Shown: in pieces, positions 2,617-9,571 of the stretch
Numbering within the stretch: position 1 is the stretch's first letter
Layout of the letters: every line of letters starts with the position of its first letter
Source of the DNA: Methanobacterium sp.
GTDB taxonomy: Archaea > Methanobacteriota > Methanobacteria > Methanobacteriales > Methanobacteriaceae
Reading direction: 5' to 3'
DNA length: 10,097 nucleotides
Assembly: GCA_003166335.1 (NCBI GenBank)
Contig: PMWA01000024.1
Span: 561-10,657, forward strand
The notes under the pieces: generated by a model
Seen by the model: only the letters and a program-made list of their open reading frames with translations
Databases searched by the model: none
Told to the model about the DNA's origin: nothing
Made by a program: the position numbers and the translations under genes

Positions 2617-4119
2617 CTATTGTAAATATTCACCATTCAACCATCTAATTCTACATATGCTGGATAAATCCTTATTTAAAGAGATGATGTCATTTTTATC
2701 AAGTTTATGAACATCATCTTTCCCAACAATACGAGTTAAATTAGCTATCTCTTCTGTTGATAATTCTATAAAATTTGTGAGTCTATTAACCCCTTCTTTA
2801 ATATTTAATTGTTTCATTAGCTGAGGATTTTGAGTGGTGACTCCAGTCGGACATAATCCTGTATAACATATCCGATATTGCTGACAGTTAATAGCTATTA
2901 AAGCTGCTGTACCAATATAAACTGCATCAGCTCCTAATGCTAGGCATTTTGCAAAATCTGCTGATCGAAGCAACCCACCTGATGCTATCAATGATATATT
3001 ATCTTTAACTCCTAATTCAGTGAGGGTTTTGTGAGCTTGTGGAAGTGCAGCGAATATTGGTATACCTACATTATCACGGACGTAGAGGTCTGTAGCACCG
3101 GTACCACCACCAAAACCATCTAAAGCGATATAATCAATATTTGAATCAACCAGCACTTTAATATCGGCCTTAACATCTCCACATCCTATTTTAGCTCCGA
3201 CTGGTGCACCATGGGTAATCTCTCGTAAATATGAAACTTTATCTTTAATATCTTGTTGACTGGTCATATCATAATGATGAGCCGGAGAGTAAGCAGCCTC
3301 ACCTGACTCCAATCCCCTGATCCGTGCCACTTCAGATGTCATCTTTTCTGAAGGTAAATAACTACCTTTACCAGGATATGCTCCCTGTCCAAACCTAATC
3401 TCAACTGCAGCGGCTGATTTAAGAATATCTTCGTCAATCCCGAATCTTCCCGTAGAATATTGTACTATCCTACAATTTAATCCTTCAATTTTCTCTTCCG
3501 AGGTTAATCCTCCTTCACCCGTATTAAATCCTATATTAAGTTTTGAAGATGTCTTAGCTATGACTAATTTCACGTTCTTGGAAACAGCTCCAAAACTTAA
3601 ACCTGAAATCATAATGGGTGAAGACAACTTTAATGGTTTTTTTGCATTGGGACCTAGATTTACAGTAGTATTTACATGTTCTTCTCGATTTAAAGGAATT
3701 TTATTTACTTGTGCTGGTATGAATTGGATGTCATCTAAGGAGAATGGTAGTTTTTTTAATGAACCCATTGAAACTATCAAACTTTCATTGCTTATACTCT
3801 CCTCTTTGATGTCCACGACGGTCTGGTAGAATGATGGGTCTTCTAAAGATTTTCTTTTACGCATAAAAGTGTTACTTTCACCTGTACCTATCTGATTACA
3901 ATAATATAATGATTTTAGTTCATTTTCAAAAAAAACCGGACAAGTATTACAGAGGCATCCCTGTGCTTCAATATCACAGTGACTCACATCAATTCCGCAA
4001 AAAAGAATTTCACCATCACATTGATGAGGATAACTGGGACACAAAGGACAATGACATTCATCTCTATTCTCTTTAGTATCCGAGATTTTAGTCCTTATAC
4101 TTGCCAGTTCTACAACCAT
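2617..4119 (-). CDS. Glutamate synthase FMN-binding (large subunit domain 2, GltB2-like) family protein with N-terminal Cys-rich DUF2769-like domain
   Basis: GltS FMN-barrel motifs: PIMISGLSFGAVS, NTGEGG, EIRFGQGAYPGKGSYLP.EKMT.EVARIRG, SPAHH.D, DGFGGGTGA, ASGGL...DFAKCLALGAD. The [3Fe-4S] loop is C-x5-C-x4-C (CQQYRICYTGLCPTGVTTQNP). Residues 22-74 hold 10 Cys, including two CxCxxCP motifs. Confidence 0.88.
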   Translation of the reverse strand: MVVELASIRTKISDTKENRDECHCPLCPSYPHQCDGEILFCGIDVSHCDIEAQGCLCNTCPVFFENELKSLYYCNQIGTGESNTFMRKRKSLEDPSFYQTVVDIKEESISNESLIVSMGSLKKLPFSLDDIQFIPAQVNKIPLNREEHVNTTVNLGPNAKKPLKLSSPIMISGLSFGAVSKNVKLVIAKTSSKLNIGFNTGEGGLTSEEKIEGLNCRIVQYSTGRFGIDEDILKSAAAVEIRFGQGAYPGKGSYLPSEKMTSEVARIRGLESGEAAYSPAHHYDMTSQQDIKDKVSYLREITHGAPVGAKIGCGDVKADIKVLVDSNIDYIALDGFGGGTGATDLYVRDNVGIPIFAALPQAHKTLTELGVKDNISLIASGGLLRSADFAKCLALGADAVYIGTAALIAINCQQYRICYTGLCPTGVTTQNPQLMKQLNIKEGVNRLTNFIELSTEEIANLTRIVGKDDVHKLDKNDIISLNKDLSSICRIRWLNGEYLQ

Positions 4120-4186
4120 ACTTAAATAACCTTAAAATTTTTTTAGTAAAATATTATAGTTCTATTAACAAAAAAGATATTATAAT

Positions 4187-5944
4187 TTATATAAATCTCC
4201 TGGGATCGGTTTCAATATCCACAATAACTGACTTTTCTGATGCAAGAGCTTTATCAACTGCTCCTGGCAACTCTTCAGGAGTTTTAACCGAAATTCCCAT
4301 CCCACCACAATCTCGTGCATAAGCAGCGAAATCGGGGTTATAAAGTTCAGTTTGCCAGACAGGATATTTCTCCACTTTCTGCTCCTGCATAATCATGCCT
4401 AATTGATGATTATTAAATAGGAATATTTTAATAGGAAGTTCATTTCGGACAGCAGTTAAAAAATCAGCCATAACCATCGAGAATCCACCATCTCCCGTGA
4501 TGCATACCACTTGTCTTTCAGGATAAACTAATTGAGCAGTTAAAGCCGCTGGTAATCCATATCCCATACTAGCTAAGTAACCAGACATGAGTAATGTTTG
4601 GCTTTTCTTCATCCAAAAATTACGTCCAAACCACCAGCAATCCTCGCCGATATCCAAGGTCACAATGGCATCTTCTGCAATTTTCTCATTTAAAACTTTA
4701 ATTATATATTGTGGTCTTACAGGGGTTTTAGTATCGTCAGCTTCTTCATCTAAAAGATCTAACCATTCATTCTTAAGTTTTCTTATCTCCTCTAAATAAT
4801 CATCTCGTTTATTCTCCCGTACCAAGTCAATAATCTCTGGTATTATTTCAGCACTGTTTCCATAGAGTCCAACTTCAACAGGGTATTGTCGTCCGATCAT
4901 TAAAGGATCTATATCTATTTGAACTGCTTTTTTTACAGGCAGATGGGTCATATCCGAGAAGGATGATCCAATAACTATTAGTAAGTCACTGTTCAACACC
5001 AATTCCGTAGCAGCCGTTGATCCGATGTCACCGTGACTTCCCACATAAAGTTCATTATCTTCATCAATAACTCCTTTACCACGGAAGGTGGTAACTACTG
5101 GTGCGGTGATTTTTTCTGCAAGTTCTAGTAAGTTTTCACCTTGAGTGATAGCTCCAAATCCGGATACTATCACTGGACGTTCCGCATTATTTATTGCCTG
5201 AGCTGCTTGAAGTATTAGGAACATGGGTTGGGTTATGGCATTATTAGGGAAACTACCTTCGAAAGGTACTGTTTTAGAAGCGTAAGGCAGTTTTTGAACA
5301 TCATTAGGTATCCCTATATGAGAAACTCCTTTATCTAAAATAGCATGTTTTATGGCGTTAGTTATAAGGGTGGTGGTTTGATCTTCTGACATTAAAACTT
5401 TATTGTAAACTGTCATTGATTCAAAAAAACTTTGTTGATCGATTTCTTGGAATGAACCCGGTCCTATGAGTTGTCTTCGTAGCATTCCAGTCATCGCTAG
5501 TACTGGTGAGTGGTCGAGACTTGCATCGTAAAGTCCAGTGGCGAGATTAGTTGCCCCGGGACCGGCAACAGTAAGACAGGCTGCTGGATGTCCTGTTAGT
5601 TTGCCGTAGGCTGAAGCCATAAATGCAGCAGTCTGTTCATGTCTCACTTGTACATATTGTAGGGCATTGTTTTTTCGCACTGCTTCCAAAACACCTAAAG
5701 AAGAAGTCCCGGGCAAACCGAAAACATATTTAATACCCCATTCCACCATTTGCTCAACCAAAACATCAGATACAGTTGATTCTCCTTCTTTAAACTCCCT
5801 AACCTCTTTTTTGATTAAAATAAAAGTTTTTTTAGGAGAGTTACAAACGGGACATCTCCAGTTATCTGGAAGATCATCAAATTTTGTACCTTCCTTTTCT
5901 TCATCAAATATATAGTTACAGACAGTGCATCTATAATTAGCCAT
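4187..5944 (-). CDS. Rubredoxin-fused thiamine-diphosphate/FAD-dependent enzyme of the pyruvate oxidase / acetolactate synthase family (POX-like)
   Basis: Residues 1-41 form a rubredoxin ([11 protein letters not shown]...[15 protein letters not shown]). Then FGLPGTS, catalytic VRHEQ, GPGATN, FQEIDQ, a central FAD-domain region, and the ThDP/Mg motif GDGGFSM...FNN. SD GAGGA at 5951-5955. Confidence 0.9.
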
Positions 5945-6002
5945 TTAAAATCCTCTACTAGCTTTATTCTATTTTATCTGGTTATATTTATGATTTTCAA
6001 TG

Positions 6003-6010
6003 TTTATAAA
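6003..6010 (-). promoter_or_regulatory. Candidate archaeal TATA box for the rubredoxin-POX / GltB2 unit
   Basis: TTTATAAA (self-complementary) about 60 nt upstream of the ATG at 5944, in the divergent intergenic region. The AT-rich background makes this weak. Confidence 0.35.
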
Positions 6011-6197
6011 AATATCTGATAATTTCGGTGAATATTAAAAGGATAAGTGATAAAATTTTATGTGAGTATGATTAGAAGTTCATGGGAGTTTAATTTTACT
6101 CTATAAATTGAAAAAGGATTTATTTATACTCTTAATTATAATGGATTTTTATTTTTGTCGAATTAATTATAACCTCTGAAATTCAAATAATCTTATT

Positions 6198-6950
6198 ATG
6201 GGTAATTATTACGTCAACGGCAGAGATGGTGAGTATTTCATAACCACTAAATCATATAAAAATCTTTATGCTTCATTTAAAAAACTTAAAATGGGAAAAA
6301 ATAGGATAATGCATGTAATTGGAGCTCCAGGTACTGGTAAATCTACTAATATTTATCATGCTATTAATGAATTGGATTTGAATTTTTATAATGTTAAATT
6401 AGATATTCCTCGACGAGTTATTGGTTCCGGAGAAGTTTTTAATAAAATTTTTGAATGTTTAAAGGATGATTTAGAGTTAGAGTCTAAAAAAGATATTTAT
6501 AAAAGGTTGGGTGAGTTTGATTTGGTTTTAATTGCCGATGATTTCCAAGATGCTCATCGTCAGAATCTTGGAGTTATGGGATTCAGTAAATGGACGGATA
6601 ATGTGGGTTTTAAATCCTTAAAATTTTATTTAATGTGTATTTGGGAATATTTGAATCATTGGAAGGATTTTAAGGATATAAATCTGGTTTTCCAGACTTC
6701 TTGGAGGATTTATATTGGTGGAGTGAAGTATGATTTATTTTCTGATCTTGGAATTTTATCTAGATTCTTAGTTTTCATTCTCAAAAGATTTTTTATTGTA
6801 GTGGAGATTTCATATTCAGAGGAGGAAACTATAAAAATAGTGAAAAACTATAATCCCCATGTTGATGAGAATCTTATTTTAATTTATATTAAAAAATATG
6901 GGCATAAACCTCGTTTTATATGTAATATGTTGGAAAGTGAATTTTTATAA
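6198..6950 (+). CDS. Uncharacterised P-loop NTPase (AAA+/STAND-like, single domain)
   Basis: Walker A hhhhGAPGTGKS (aa 42-49) and Walker B-like LVLIADD. The C-terminal YSEEETIKIV...YGHKPRFI resembles the helical lid / GxP motif of AAA+/STAND ATPases. Confidence 0.75.
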   Translation: MGNYYVNGRDGEYFITTKSYKNLYASFKKLKMGKNRIMHVIGAPGTGKSTNIYHAINELDLNFYNVKLDIPRRVIGSGEVFNKIFECLKDDLELESKKDIYKRLGEFDLVLIADDFQDAHRQNLGVMGFSKWTDNVGFKSLKFYLMCIWEYLNHWKDFKDINLVFQTSWRIYIGGVKYDLFSDLGILSRFLVFILKRFFIVVEISYSEEETIKIVKNYNPHVDENLILIYIKKYGHKPRFICNMLESEFL

Positions 6951-6978
6951 AAAAAATATTTTTTTGGAGATAGCATTG

Positions 6979-6987
6979 ATTTTTTTT
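6979..6987 (+). terminator. Possible oligo-T terminator between the NTPase and UbiA-like genes
   Basis: T9 run downstream of the stop at 6950, with another T7 run at 6959-6965. Archaeal intrinsic terminators are oligo-T tracts. Confidence 0.3.
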
Positions 6988-7020
6988 ATTTAAGAAATTA
7001 TAAAAAAAAGAAGTTTTAAT

Positions 7021-7824
7021 ATGATTAAATCTCTTTTAAAATCAATTCGTATTGGCTGGGCATCTAAAACCCTTAACATGTTCTTATTAGCATTGAGTTA
7101 TGCTTATTTCTCTGGTTTAATTATTAAAAATCCTTATGAAGTATTGGGAGGTTTGATTTTAGTATGTTTATTGTGGGGAGGTCTTTACAGTTTAAATGAT
7201 TATACTGACATTGAATCGGATCGGGAAAATCCAGAGAAGCAGGATAGAGCTTTTATCCAGGAGAAGGTGGAAGAGAAATCTGTGCTTAGTTTTATAGTAA
7301 TATTAATTATTATAGTATTCATAATTTCACTAATCTTCTATTCACTGATTTTTACTTTAATCTTAGGATTAATGCTTTTAAATCAAATTCTTTATACTTT
7401 ACCTCCTTTCAGATTAAAAAACACAATATTAGCCCCTTTCACTAGTACTGCCACTAATTCCGTACTTAGGACAGCATCATGCTGTGTTTTATTAGGTAAT
7501 TTATTCTTAGTACCGTTACCTGTTTATTTTTTCATCTATTTTGCTGGAATGGGTACGTATTCATTATACAAAAATAAAAAAATATTTTCGCAAATCATAG
7601 TCATTTTAGGAGTAATTACTCTTGGTTATATTTTTTATAACGGAGATATGAATCTGATACAATTCGGAGTGGCGATTTTACCTTCATTAATAGCTGCCAT
7701 TCCACTGTACTTATCATTATTCATTAGTAAAGATAAAATGATGCATCTATCAGATGTAATATACCATCAAGTGGCTCTCGTATTCTTTACGATAACAATA
7801 TTTTACTTACTCTTCATAACTTAA
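7021..7824 (+). CDS. UbiA prenyltransferase-superfamily integral membrane protein
   Basis: Multiple hydrophobic helices. First Asp-rich motif YSLNDYTDIESDRENPEKQDR and YTLPPFRLK (Y..PP.RLK) motif. No obvious second DxxxD motif. Confidence 0.85.
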   Translation: MIKSLLKSIRIGWASKTLNMFLLALSYAYFSGLIIKNPYEVLGGLILVCLLWGGLYSLNDYTDIESDRENPEKQDRAFIQEKVEEKSVLSFIVILIIIVFIISLIFYSLIFTLILGLMLLNQILYTLPPFRLKNTILAPFTSTATNSVLRTASCCVLLGNLFLVPLPVYFFIYFAGMGTYSLYKNKKIFSQIIVILGVITLGYIFYNGDMNLIQFGVAILPSLIAAIPLYLSLFISKDKMMHLSDVIYHQVALVFFTITIFYLLFIT

Positions 7825-7886
7825 TAAAAAAAATTAAATTCATGGTAAGTATATTTGAATAATTATTTTGAACCTAAAACACATCT

Positions 7887-7897
7887 AAAAAAAAAAA
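7887..7897 (-). terminator. Oligo-T terminator of the ferredoxin-GGR unit
   Basis: A11 on the plus strand, i.e. T11 on the minus strand, 5 nt after the GGR stop codon, in the convergent intergenic gap. Confidence 0.55.
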
Positions 7898-7902
7898 TTA
7901 TC

Positions 7903-9087
7903 CTAAAATAGTTTGCCAAGTTTCAAAAGAGCCTTAGGAGAAACCTTAACCAGTACCTTAATGATCTCTTTAGTACTTATTCTTTCAAACTCGGTATTCT
8001 TAAAGGCATCAGCTATAGAGTCAAGTTCTTCATCAGATAAATTTAAAAGATAGTTTTTTACTTTCAACTCTTTTTTAAAGGTTTTGACCATCTCCACCTC
8101 ACATTTATCTTGATACTCTTGCAGTCTTTTCTGTGAGTAATTACCTTCCTCTATTGCTGCGGCTGTCACTTCACCGGCAAAAACTCCTCCTTTCATTGCA
8201 CTGATTATTCCCCCCCCAGTTAAGGGACTAACCTGACTTGCAGCATCACCCACTATTACTAAATTATCTGTAACCAGTTTTTTAAGCATACCACCTACAG
8301 GATCTCCACCAATATTTAATTCTACTGGCTGAGCATTTTGAGTGGACGGACAATTACTTACAAATTCCAGTAAATGTTCATAGGCTGTTTTATCAGTTTT
8401 GGTAGTAATTATTCCTAAACCTACATTAGCGATATCATCTCCCTTAGGGAATATCCAAGCGTAACCTCCTGGAGCTACGCTTCCAAAATAAAATTCTATA
8501 GAGTTAGGATCATCCATTTCCACTCTAGCCATCTCAAACTGTGCGCAAGATTCCATATCTTTGGGTTTAAGTGTTGTTTTAAGACCCGCCCACCTTCCAA
8601 CTCGTGACTCGGGACCATCGGCTGCAATCACTATTTTAGTATGTATATCGAATGATTGATCCATACATTCAGCACTGACAATTATACCCTCTTCACTTCT
8701 TTTAAGTCCTGTAGCGATGGTTTTAACCATGATTTCTACACCTGCACGGGCAGCGTTCATAGCCATATGTTTATCGAAAATCTTCCGCTCTAGAATGTAG
8801 CCCGCTTCAGGCAATTTCACTCGTTCCTCGTTTAGCCAAACACTGGTACCGTTGGGTGATATAAACTTCACTCCAGTTAATTCCTTAGCTATCCATCTAC
8901 TACTGGGTTCTATTCCCAGAGTTTTAAGACCTTCCTTTGAAACTCCCTCTGCACATCTTTTAGGAGTGCCGATCTCAGATTTTTTATCAATCATAAGTAC
9001 TTTTGCACCGTTTAAAGCAGCGTGTTTTGCAGCGGATGAGCCAGCGGGTCCTGCACCTATGACTAGGATATCAGTTTCAATTGACAT
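7903..9087 (-). CDS. Digeranylgeranylglycerophospholipid reductase (archaeal geranylgeranyl reductase, FAD-dependent)
   Basis: Rossmann motif DILVIGAGPAGSSAA, PKRCAEG (conserved Cys), GGR motif PGGYAWIFPKG, ANVGLG and VGDAA.QV.PLTGGGI. Length is 394 aa. SD AGGTGA at 9097-9102. A ferredoxin gene lies immediately upstream. Confidence 0.92.
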   Translation of the reverse strand: MSIETDILVIGAGPAGSSAAKHAALNGAKVLMIDKKSEIGTPKRCAEGVSKEGLKTLGIEPSSRWIAKELTGVKFISPNGTSVWLNEERVKLPEAGYILERKIFDKHMAMNAARAGVEIMVKTIATGLKRSEEGIIVSAECMDQSFDIHTKIVIAADGPESRVGRWAGLKTTLKPKDMESCAQFEMARVEMDDPNSIEFYFGSVAPGGYAWIFPKGDDIANVGLGIITTKTDKTAYEHLLEFVSNCPSTQNAQPVELNIGGDPVGGMLKKLVTDNLVIVGDAASQVSPLTGGGIISAMKGGVFAGEVTAAAIEEGNYSQKRLQEYQDKCEVEMVKTFKKELKVKNYLLNLSDEELDSIADAFKNTEFERISTKEIIKVLVKVSPKALLKLGKLF

Positions 9088-9142
9088 TTCAAAAATTCAC
9101 CTTCAAATTAGTTTTTTTATTTTATATAAATATTCTTTTTCT

Positions 9143-9310
9143 TTATTCCTCTTTAGAGAGAGCCTGCACGGGGCAAACCTGTATACATATTCTGCAGTCT
9201 TTACATTCATTTTCATTGAATATTAAGCAAGATTCCCTGACTTCGATAAGTGAACGGGGACATACACCAGCGCATTCCCCACAATACATGCACCATTCAT
9301 TAACTTTCAT
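9143..9310 (-). CDS. 2[4Fe-4S] ferredoxin, 55 aa (probable electron donor to GGR)
   Basis: Not in the ORF track. Manual translation: MKVNEWCMYCGECAGVCPRSLIEVRESCLIFNENECKDCRICIQVCPVQALSKEE*. Two CxxCxxCxxxCP motifs. SD-like AGGTTGA at 9316-9322. Confidence 0.95.
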   Translation of the reverse strand: MKVNEWCMYCGECAGVCPRSLIEVRESCLIFNENECKDCRICIQVCPVQALSKEE

Positions 9311-9571
9311 AATTATCAACCTTTATCCATCATTTATTTATTAACTATCCGATTAACTTTTTTAACACTTTCATAGTATTTATATTCTATAGTGAATATT
9401 TTTTTATTAAATATTAATTACAAATAAAATCGTTGGATTAAGTTTATTTAAGTAAAGTATAAAAAGTGTGAATAATTAAAGGATATTAATTAAATAAAAA
9501 AAATTATTGAATTGTTATTTTGCCCCCTTTATTTGAGTTCTGGAAAGAAAAAATAATGATTTAGGTGAACA

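Follow-up and report, generated by a model that had tools for sequence, protein, structure and literature searches.

A Recurrent Gene Pair of Methanobacteriaceae Predicted to Encode a Rubredoxin-Headed Pyruvate Oxidase-like Enzyme and a Glutamate Synthase-like Flavoprotein with an Altered Active-Site Loop

Introduction

Two neighboring genes of a Methanobacterium sp. raise the question of what a methanogen does with a pyruvate oxidase (POX)-like enzyme encoded next to a protein that resembles the flavin mononucleotide (FMN) domain of glutamate synthase (GltS), when each protein carries a cysteine-containing head of its own. The genes are found on the minus strand of a stretch of 10,097 nucleotides (GenBank assembly GCA_003166335.1, contig PMWA01000024.1, positions 561 to 10,657), which is referred to here as the window and supplies the coordinates used below unless a contig or locus is named. 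The window is AT-rich, and the genome that carries it (G000; Methanobacteriaceae) is 2.49 Mb in size and 99.4% complete. Gene 1 (4187-5944, 585 amino acids) is located upstream, and gene 2 (2617-4119, 500 amino acids) follows after an AT-rich intergenic spacer of 67 nt (4120-4186, minus strand). The first-pass annotation described gene 1 as a rubredoxin-headed enzyme dependent on thiamin diphosphate (ThDP) and flavin adenine dinucleotide (FAD), and gene 2 as a GltB2-like protein headed by DUF2769; this description was borne out.

Both cores are of known kinds, and, judged by family models and trees, neither passes for a member of the family after which it is named. From sequence comparison we identify the two genes as the anaerobe form of a widespread pair of carrier-headed POX and GltB2 proteins, with a distinct active site in the GltB2-like partner that is termed here the Tyr type. 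No paper on the pair, on a rubredoxin-POX fusion, or on a DUF2769-GltB2 fusion was found in a search of mainly openly accessible literature.

Occurrence of the Gene Pair

The distribution of the two genes was determined in 121 genomes of the family, in which the oxidase was called at E ≤ 1e-100 and the Tyr-type protein at E ≤ 4e-150, weaker matches being other paralogues. The oxidase was found in 57 genomes, the Tyr-type protein in 56, and both in 46. In 41 of these 46 genomes, from nine genera, the two genes are adjacent and in the order found in the window, which rules out that the arrangement is unique to this genome, one of the outcomes that the first-pass annotation had named as fatal to its proposal. 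Adjacency of the pair is far above chance. The spacer between orthologous gene pairs was 6 to 166 nt at 17 loci, and among 80 oxidase loci, some with short flanks, the partner is adjacent in 19 of the 27 from Methanobacteriota.

The pair recurs in other arrangements. In the phylum of G154, a Methanocellaceae record, 251 genomes were found to contain the oxidase in 54 cases, the Tyr-type protein in 16, and both in 12. In eight related genomes of this phylum the order of the pair is reversed, neither head is present, and the gaps are 169-655 nt; in G154 the genes are divergent. At the headless reversed pairs (L252-L259) an acylphosphatase gene is convergent with the oxidase and lies just downstream of it (checked with Pfam in L254), which would be consistent with an acyl-phosphate product or could be coincidental. 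An apparent example from Methanomicrobiales (L051, G153) was dropped because its coordinates are identical to those of the family member G082, and the record has probably been mislabeled. At L077 a GltB2 fragment (42%) is found about 2 kb from the oxidase and was not counted as a pair.

Either gene is also encountered alone. At the same chromosomal site, before an ArcS-like gene, single genes were found for the oxidase (L046, L096, L190, L191, L197, and L200) or for the GltB2-like protein (L140, L141, L148-L150, L194, L195, and L198). Lone rubredoxin-POX genes occur in loci of Bathyarchaeia, Chloroflexota, and Bacillota, and among 79 metagenome loci of the Tyr-type protein, many of them short, the oxidase adjoins upstream in 12. 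The pairing is not obligate.

The POX-like Enzyme Encoded by Gene 1

The rubredoxin domain at the N-terminus of gene 1 (5822-5938, residues 3-41) is matched by Pfam with an E-value of 1.4e-10 (41.5 bits against a cutoff of 23) and contains two CXXC motifs (Cys6/Cys9 and Cys31/Cys34). It is followed by the TPP_enzyme_N (Pyr) domain (5429-5776, residues 57-172), the FAD-binding TPP_enzyme_M domain (4838-5209, residues 246-369), and the TPP_enzyme_C domain (4214-4654, residues 431-577), which holds GDGG at residues 484-487 and a Glu521-Gln522 pair that aligns to the EQ pair of Lactiplantibacillus plantarum POX. Glu103, GDGG, and the FAD-domain residues Gly262, Gly264, Lys290, and Asp344 are invariant in 58 sequences, and FAD binding is predicted. 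Gene 1 thus has the Pyr, FAD, and PP domains, the catalytic Glu, and the GDG motif for ThDP by which a PoxB-type enzyme is recognized. The AlphaFold models of both proteins are confident (pLDDT 88.8 and 87.8), their best structural matches being Escherichia coli PoxB and the FMN domain of GltS; PoxB is the best solved relative of gene 1 (TM 0.83 by query, 32% identity). The best NCBIfam match is pyruvate oxidase PRK08611 at 487 bits against a cutoff of 742. PoxB scores 379 against 792 and SpxB 369 against 638, and gene 1 reaches no NCBIfam equivalog cutoff.

The trees used in this analysis are quick and FastTree trees. In a FastTree tree of 50 rows, 42 rows including gene 1 form one tail-less POX-like clade (support 97), apart from PoxB, from the POX enzymes of Lactiplantibacillus, Bacillus, and S. 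meliloti, and from acetohydroxyacid synthase (AHAS). The heads within this clade are one or two rubredoxins, a Rieske domain, or none. The C-terminal extension past the core amounts to 0-4 residues in five clade members against 37-68 in three POX references; the residues beyond the match number 0 in gene 1, 47 in E. coli PoxB, 37 in the Bacillus enzyme, and 68 in the S. meliloti enzyme. It appears that an N-terminal carrier has taken over from the membrane tail as the exit for electrons.

The GltB2-like Protein Encoded by Gene 2

The DUF2769 domain of gene 2 (3898-4056, residues 22-74) matches PF10967 with an E-value of 1.2e-10 (42.2 bits; gathering score 22.8) and contains exactly ten cysteines, at positions 22, 24, 27, 34, 41, 48, 55, 57, 60, and 74. 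The look-alikes retrieved from the Atlas (score 0.85) all belong to DUF2769, which serves as no more than a lead, and structure searches with gene 2 were uninformative for the fold of this head because the barrel fills the match lists. The Glu_synthase FMN barrel (2722-3795, residues 109-466) was detected by Pfam with an E-value of 2.7e-116, and the model has the fold of GltS (Foldseek E-value of 1e-25 to 1OFE; VIA Z of 39.0 and rmsd of 3.1 over 393 aligned residues to 6S6S).

Gene 2 was aligned pairwise with GltS from Synechocystis, and the Synechocystis residue numbers were counted from this alignment. Gene 2 retains the GltS residues Gln969, Arg992, Lys1034, and Thr1065 and all three cysteines of the cluster. 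The cysteines form the CX5CX4C motif for a [3Fe-4S] cluster (2851-2886; Cys412, Cys418, and Cys423), which is conserved in 120 of 120 close homologues, as are Arg268 and Thr340, the counterparts of Arg992 and Thr1065. A subfamily-specific loop (3352-3402, residues 240-256) is altered: Tyr248 is found for Lys972, Arg242 for Lys966, Lys251 for Glu975, and Tyr254 for Gln978. We take Lys972, Arg992, and Thr1065 of GltS to be ligands of 2-oxoglutarate. All 120 close homologues have Tyr at the position of Lys972, and the position of Glu1013 is variable among the homologues of gene 2. Lys972 is kept by large GltB, canonical GltB2, GlxD, and the forms headed by rubredoxin, Rieske, or CDGSH; in 150 distant representatives the position is occupied by Lys in 75, Tyr in 9, a gap in 14, and another residue in 52.

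The Tyr-type proteins form a clade of their own (21 of 72 rows, support 99). In trees of 26 and 32 rows this clade is sister to the carrier-headed (rubredoxin, Rieske, or CDGSH) Lys-type GltB2 clade with a support of 97. The comparison with archaeal GltB2 and GlxD/MgsC suggested in the first-pass annotation places the Tyr-type proteins separately, and their grouping with canonical GltB2 and GlxD was rejected (p-AU 0.0007, 26 rows). GlxD, represented by one annotated protein, groups with canonical GltB2 and not with the Tyr-type clade. Gene 2 neither groups with GlxD nor shows linkage to mgsAB or glxBC, and several of its homologues are labeled MgsC by JGI. The database labels "glutamate synthase" and "MgsC" on Tyr-type proteins are probably wrong.

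At loci L145-L147, L152-L155, L161, L165, and L168, which represent a Tyr-type subgroup mostly without DUF2769, the GEGG motif reads GED and the Arg992 position is changed; this subgroup is possibly specific for a different substrate or degenerate. At seven other loci (L126, L130, L132, L135, L136, L138, and L144) DUF2769-GltB2 genes are found on contigs that look bacterial, with lgt, cupredoxin, DsbD-like, and heavy-metal ATPase genes as neighbors, and in four of the seven a short peptide is inserted in the linker.

The Canonical Glutamate Synthase of the Same Genome

The mechanism of GltS and the splitting of its archaeal open reading frames are described in the literature (PMC8097209). A second GltB2, about 40% identical to gene 2, is encoded in G000. 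Contig C59 (1-3148) contains a GATase gene, a GXGXG gene, an FrhB-like gene, and the N-terminus of a canonical ferredoxin-headed GltB2 that seemingly runs off the contig, and C55 (690-4002) contains the body of a canonical GltB2, followed by amt- and glnK-like genes. We infer that C59 and C55 join into one gltB1-gltB3-frhB-like-gltB2 cluster; the same four-gene order is intact at L189. The FrhB-like subunit suggests F420 as the electron donor of this enzyme. An NrpR-type box is located at C55:2571, upstream of amt, and none was found preceding the oxidase, either in G000 or at 22 related loci. A Pfam scan of ten open reading frames of the window reported no GATase or GXGXG family.

Gene 2 is accordingly judged, on these comparisons, not to be the glutamate synthase of the cell, because a canonical cluster is located elsewhere, the trees separate the two proteins, and the loop Lys is replaced by Tyr. 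This agrees with the earlier proposal that the pair does not serve ammonia assimilation. The Tyr in place of the loop Lys suggests that gene 2 may act on a substrate other than glutamate. Further GltB2 paralogues, a 620-residue polyferredoxin-GltB2 and a 415-residue form, were found at L184 (2605-5189), L186, and L188; each is preceded by a GXGXG-type gene, and the flanking sequence retrieved contains no GATase gene.

Exchange of Heads and the Rieske-Headed Relatives

A swapping of modules between the two families had been named beforehand as a sign of a working connection, and these cores were found with rubredoxin, Rieske, CDGSH, or DUF2769 heads as well as headless. On stand-alone GltB2 cores the heads are ferredoxin, rubredoxin, Rieske, CDGSH, and DUF2769 (46 of 150 representatives scanned). 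Protein P0127 is a GltB2 with a C-terminal rubrerythrin fusion, and P0135 is a CCG-rubredoxin-GltB2 fusion. The type 5 CDGSH (CISD) proteins combine CDGSH with the glutamate synthase FMN domain, and the accessible part of their description gives no function or POX partner (PMC3174974).

In two haloarchaeal plasmids, genes for Rieske-POX and Rieske-GltB2 are 1 and 4 genes apart; three other plasmid regions have only one of the two. Rieske-headed bacterial and haloarchaeal POX proteins fall within the same 42-row clade as gene 1, and Rieske-headed GltB2 belongs to the carrier-headed sister clade of the Tyr-type proteins. These trees confirm a shared ancestry of both cores with their Rieske-headed counterparts. 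Protein P0271 (1195 residues, Rieske-GltB2-Rieske-POX) was rejected as a Rosetta-stone fusion: the GltB2 match ends at residue 396, beyond which the sequence looks out of frame, so that a frameshift artifact is likely and the protein shows adjacency only.

DUF2769 is mentioned in two reports, in one as a small protein under heat stress in M. mazei (PMC12704099) and in the other as a structural cluster without assignment (bioRxiv 10.64898/2026.04.01.715805). By analogy with the ferredoxin, rubredoxin, Rieske, and CDGSH heads whose position it occupies, DUF2769 may be an electron carrier, which is a first functional hypothesis for this domain.

Accessory and Oxidant-Defense Genes

At seven loci (L045, L113, L116, L117, L119, L179, and L196) accessory genes are clustered with one or both genes of the pair. 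They encode, in varying combinations, a class II fumarase (FumC, above cutoff), an SdhA/FrdA flavoprotein with its Fe-S subunit (SdhAB), a rubredoxin-headed FMN hydroxyacid-dehydrogenase-like protein, and small DUF2769 proteins; no membrane anchor gene was seen beside sdhAB in these clusters. Four accessory genes are co-oriented before the oxidase at L045 (787-7764). In G000 they are located on C103 (1-3613) and C48 (17058-18449), and a more distant flavoprotein and Fe-S pair is found on C53 and C76. Among the 121 genomes, all carriers of sdhA (29 of 29), of the rubredoxin-FMN dehydrogenase (26 of 26), and of fumC (19 of 19) are within the 46 two-gene genomes; none of the three genes was found in the 21 single-gene or the 54 no-gene genomes. 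The Fisher values of 3e-7 to 3e-4 for this co-occurrence are overstated, since kin are not independent. The nesting of sdhAB, fumC, and the rubredoxin-hydroxyacid dehydrogenase alongside the pair is newly observed here.

The redox or oxidant-defense setting proposed in the first-pass annotation is supported by these enzymes and by neighboring genes. L265 is an FprA-rubredoxin-2-oxoacid oxidoreductase-DUF2769-RubPOX cluster, and at L187 (2843-5100) a rubredoxin-type GltB2 adjoins rubrerythrin. Other neighbors of the defense type are rubrerythrin (L068), peroxiredoxin (L048), desulfoferrodoxin-N (L030), and methionine sulfoxide reductase (L051); loci with such neighbors are a minority. In G000 itself, rubrerythrin gave two clean matches and the acetyl-CoA synthetase N-domain three, five free rubredoxins are encoded, and acetate kinase gave no match. 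Rubredoxin-based defense in methanogens is mentioned, and these enzymes are not, in the accessible parts of two articles (PMC12904285 and PMC3146512).

Two other regions of G000 were labeled by eye. On C9 (1283-4242) three rubredoxin genes in tandem precede ferritin-, peroxiredoxin-, and superoxide-dismutase-like genes. On C66 (1193-4136) a small DUF2769 gene, one of 7 DUF2769 matches in this genome, is followed by arsenate-reductase-, glutaredoxin-, and ferredoxin:thioredoxin-reductase-like reading frames, and a second FMN hydroxyacid dehydrogenase is found in the same region.

Proposed Function

We tentatively favor, with somewhat less than even confidence, a reading in which the two proteins are soluble dehydrogenases arranged in series for carbon and in parallel for electrons, and would feed proteins that reduce O2 or peroxide when a methanogen meets air. 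Gene 2 would catalyze the half-reaction of GltS in reverse, converting an amino acid or a related acid to a 2-oxo acid, with the electrons leaving from FMN through the [3Fe-4S] cluster to DUF2769. The isolated alpha subunit of GltS can oxidize glutamate with artificial acceptors. In POX enzymes the ThDP-bound 2-oxo acid is oxidized through FAD, and by this family chemistry gene 1 would oxidatively decarboxylate pyruvate or another 2-oxo acid to a carboxylate or acyl-phosphate and CO2. Because gene 1 has no C-terminal membrane tail, its electrons would pass from FAD to its own rubredoxin in place of quinone. Both heads would then discharge into rubrerythrin, FprA-type, or free-rubredoxin sinks; rubredoxin is a donor to rubrerythrin and flavodiiron proteins. 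The persistence of the pairing without heads in eight genomes argues for linked chemistry rather than a circuit from head to core. If correct, this proposal bears on the source of electrons for the rubrerythrin/rubredoxin O2 defense of soil and peat methanogens once air shuts down hydrogenases and methanogenesis, and the locus supplies soluble, expressible candidate enzymes for it.

Several observations weigh against the two-dehydrogenase reading. Of the 121 family genomes, 11 have only the oxidase, 10 have only the Tyr-type protein, and 5 hold both genes apart. The partner is adjacent in only 1 of 53 oxidase loci from outside Methanobacteriota (some flanks short), and in the phylum of a Bathyarchaeia record (201 genomes) the oxidase occurs in 6 genomes, the Tyr-type protein in 1, and both in none. 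All three accessory genes are missing from 16 of the 46 two-gene genomes, and their nesting may reflect a shared lifestyle, given the kinship of the genomes. Among the 91 neighbors scanned around lone RubPOX genes, most have no redox connection, and G000 gave no match to superoxide reductase. Gene 1 has three AHAS-like residues (Asn133, Gln104, and Met517), and the 72-row tree does not resolve the Tyr-type and carrier-headed GltB2 clades as sisters.

The alternative that survives best, although we consider it unlikely, is that the two enzymes are co-regulated and chemically independent, sharing the lifestyle of air-exposed soil and peat in an operon of convenience. The separate loss of each gene at the same chromosomal site, the 21 genomes with one gene, the lone RubPOX genes of other lineages, and the low share of adjacent pairs among the metagenome loci (many of them short) are as expected from such independence. 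The same two clades, however, are neighbors in three methanogen arrangements and again in Rieske-headed form, and the accessory oxidative enzymes nest only in two-gene genomes.

The first-pass annotation proposed a closed circuit, in which electrons from the oxidase pass through its own rubredoxin to the DUF2769, [3Fe-4S], and FMN centers of the partner and on to an imine or other acceptor. The carriers on both proteins, the adjacency of the genes, the intact ligands for FMN and [3Fe-4S], and the universal conservation of Arg268 and Thr340 in the close homologues would all fit this circuit, but we now regard it as improbable. Rubredoxin has a potential of about 0 mV and the FMN and [3Fe-4S] centers of GltS-type proteins are at about -200 mV or lower, so that rubredoxin would be a poor donor. 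The two-dehydrogenase reading is favored because the circuit would run uphill and would leave the headless pairs and the frequent lone genes unexplained.

That gene 1 encodes an acetolactate-synthase-like carboligase without redox function, in which FAD is structural and the rubredoxin serves as a sensor or accessory domain, appears highly unlikely. The three AHAS-like residues would suit such an enzyme, and many AHAS models of NCBIfam score close to the POX models on gene 1. The arginine of RFDDR and the tryptophan of QWQ are functional residues of AHAS; E. coli IlvI has both, whereas gene 1 reads GSSFSDM and MQEQ instead. Its Glu521-Gln522 pair is of the POX type, and in the FastTree tree it falls with POX (support 100), separate from IlvI and from the three AHAS-like paralogues in G000, although branches on the AHAS side are long. 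Moreover, an ilvB-ilvN-ilvC-like run (labels by eye) is already present on C119 of G000, and a non-redox enzyme would not need repeated carrier swapping.

Hardly credible is an alternative synthase subunit that makes glutamate with GltB1 and GltB3 from elsewhere in the genome, where both are present: gene 2 has the GltS fold, but a canonical gltB2 already sits within the gltB1-gltB3-frhB-like cluster, Lys972 is Tyr throughout the close homologues and the Glu1013 position varies, grouping with canonical GltB2 and GlxD is rejected, and no NrpR-type box precedes the pair.

Beyond the two-dehydrogenase reading, it is conceivable, and to us rather doubtful, that air-exposed Methanobacteriaceae possess a complete, soluble, quinone-free oxidative branch made up of the Tyr-type GltB2, rubredoxin-POX, an anchor-less SdhAB, FumC, and the rubredoxin-headed hydroxyacid dehydrogenase, by which organic acids would be burnt to scavenge O2. 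The Tyr-type GltB2 would convert glutamate or hydroxyglutarate to 2-oxoglutarate, rubredoxin-POX would convert 2-oxoglutarate to succinate and CO2, and the hydroxyacid dehydrogenase would convert malate to oxaloacetate, each step passing single electrons to rubredoxin or DUF2769. The organic-acid pool would be consumed when H2-driven methanogenesis stops, and DUF2769 would represent a new class of iron-sulfur carrier.

Expression Signals and Flanking Genes

Part of the window is present in 20 peat metatranscriptomes from 17 studies, and RNA contigs from seven runs map to portions of both genes. Contigs of three runs, each from a different study, end at 5918, 5936, and 5947, at the start of the oxidase and below a TATA-like element (6002-6017, minus strand; 57 nt upstream of the start of gene 1) that is a candidate archaeal promoter. 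The core of this element is shared by 10 of the 22 upstream regions from Methanobacteriota. Together, the contig ends and this element hint weakly at where transcription may start. One contig spans the oxidase to 4127, stopping 8 nt before the start codon of gene 2. Contig X2 (3856-4369) bridges the gap; its source run covers 29 of 30 window bins, and it may therefore be of DNA origin. No gap-bridging contig was found in four runs of four studies, and co-transcription of the two genes is only hinted at. A sigma-70 scan, which does not cover archaeal promoters, was at chance (18 matches against 16.7 expected), and a search of the sequence preceding the oxidase, in G000 and at 22 loci, gave no MsvR-like box.

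On the downstream side of the pair, a PAS histidine kinase (1373-2500), inserted in close relatives only, separates it from a 304-residue ArcS C-terminal-type protein (DUF5591-PUA; 349-1263), and an MIP18-like Fe-S assembly gene is located at 3-224. On the other side are a divergent P-loop protein with weak AAA matches only (6198-6950), a UbiA-family prenyltransferase (7021-7824), a geranylgeranyl reductase (7903-9087), and a small ferredoxin (9143-9319); this block (6198-9319) flanks the site in many Methanobacteriaceae.

Comparison with Known Systems

Gene 1 shares the three-domain ThDP/FAD fold with E. coli PoxB (3EY9/3EYA), Corynebacterium glutamicum PQO (9EV3-9EV6), and L. plantarum POX (1POW), together with the catalytic Glu, GDGG, the FAD motifs, and the EQ pair of the last. 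It is unlike these enzymes in its N-terminal rubredoxin, its missing tail, its separate clade, and its scores below the NCBIfam cutoffs, and at the active site it has Asn for the His and Met for the Phe of POX.

Gene 2 has the FMN barrel and the [3Fe-4S] cysteines in common with the FMN domain of GltS (Synechocystis 1OFD/1LLW; Azospirillum 1EA0/6S6S) and with the archaeal split GltB2. It differs in that no amidotransferase or GXGXG partner adjoins it and in that DUF2769 replaces the ferredoxin head. GlxD/MgsC, subunit C of N-methylglutamate synthase (glxBCD, Rhizobium etli plasmid, L272), is a stand-alone FMN protein of the GltB2 type like gene 2 and 35% identical to it, but keeps the loop Lys, has no CX5CX4C motif, and sits with glxB and glxC. 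The type 5 CDGSH proteins, from the sister clade, likewise place an iron-sulfur head on a stand-alone GltB2 core, with CDGSH as the head and a Lys-type loop.

A further related arrangement is the pair of Rieske-GltS-like and Rieske-PoxB-like proteins of bacteria and haloarchaea, in which the same two cores are encoded by neighboring genes and on which the literature searched yielded no paper. The pair of the window is unlike it in its rubredoxin and DUF2769 heads, its Tyr-type loop, its strictly anaerobic host, the lack of a membrane heme partner in the window, and its accessory sdhAB, fumC, and hydroxyacid dehydrogenase genes. The pairing of a tail-less POX clade with a stand-alone GltB2 clade thus spans aerobes and strict anaerobes, with Rieske, rubredoxin, DUF2769, or no head as interchangeable parts.

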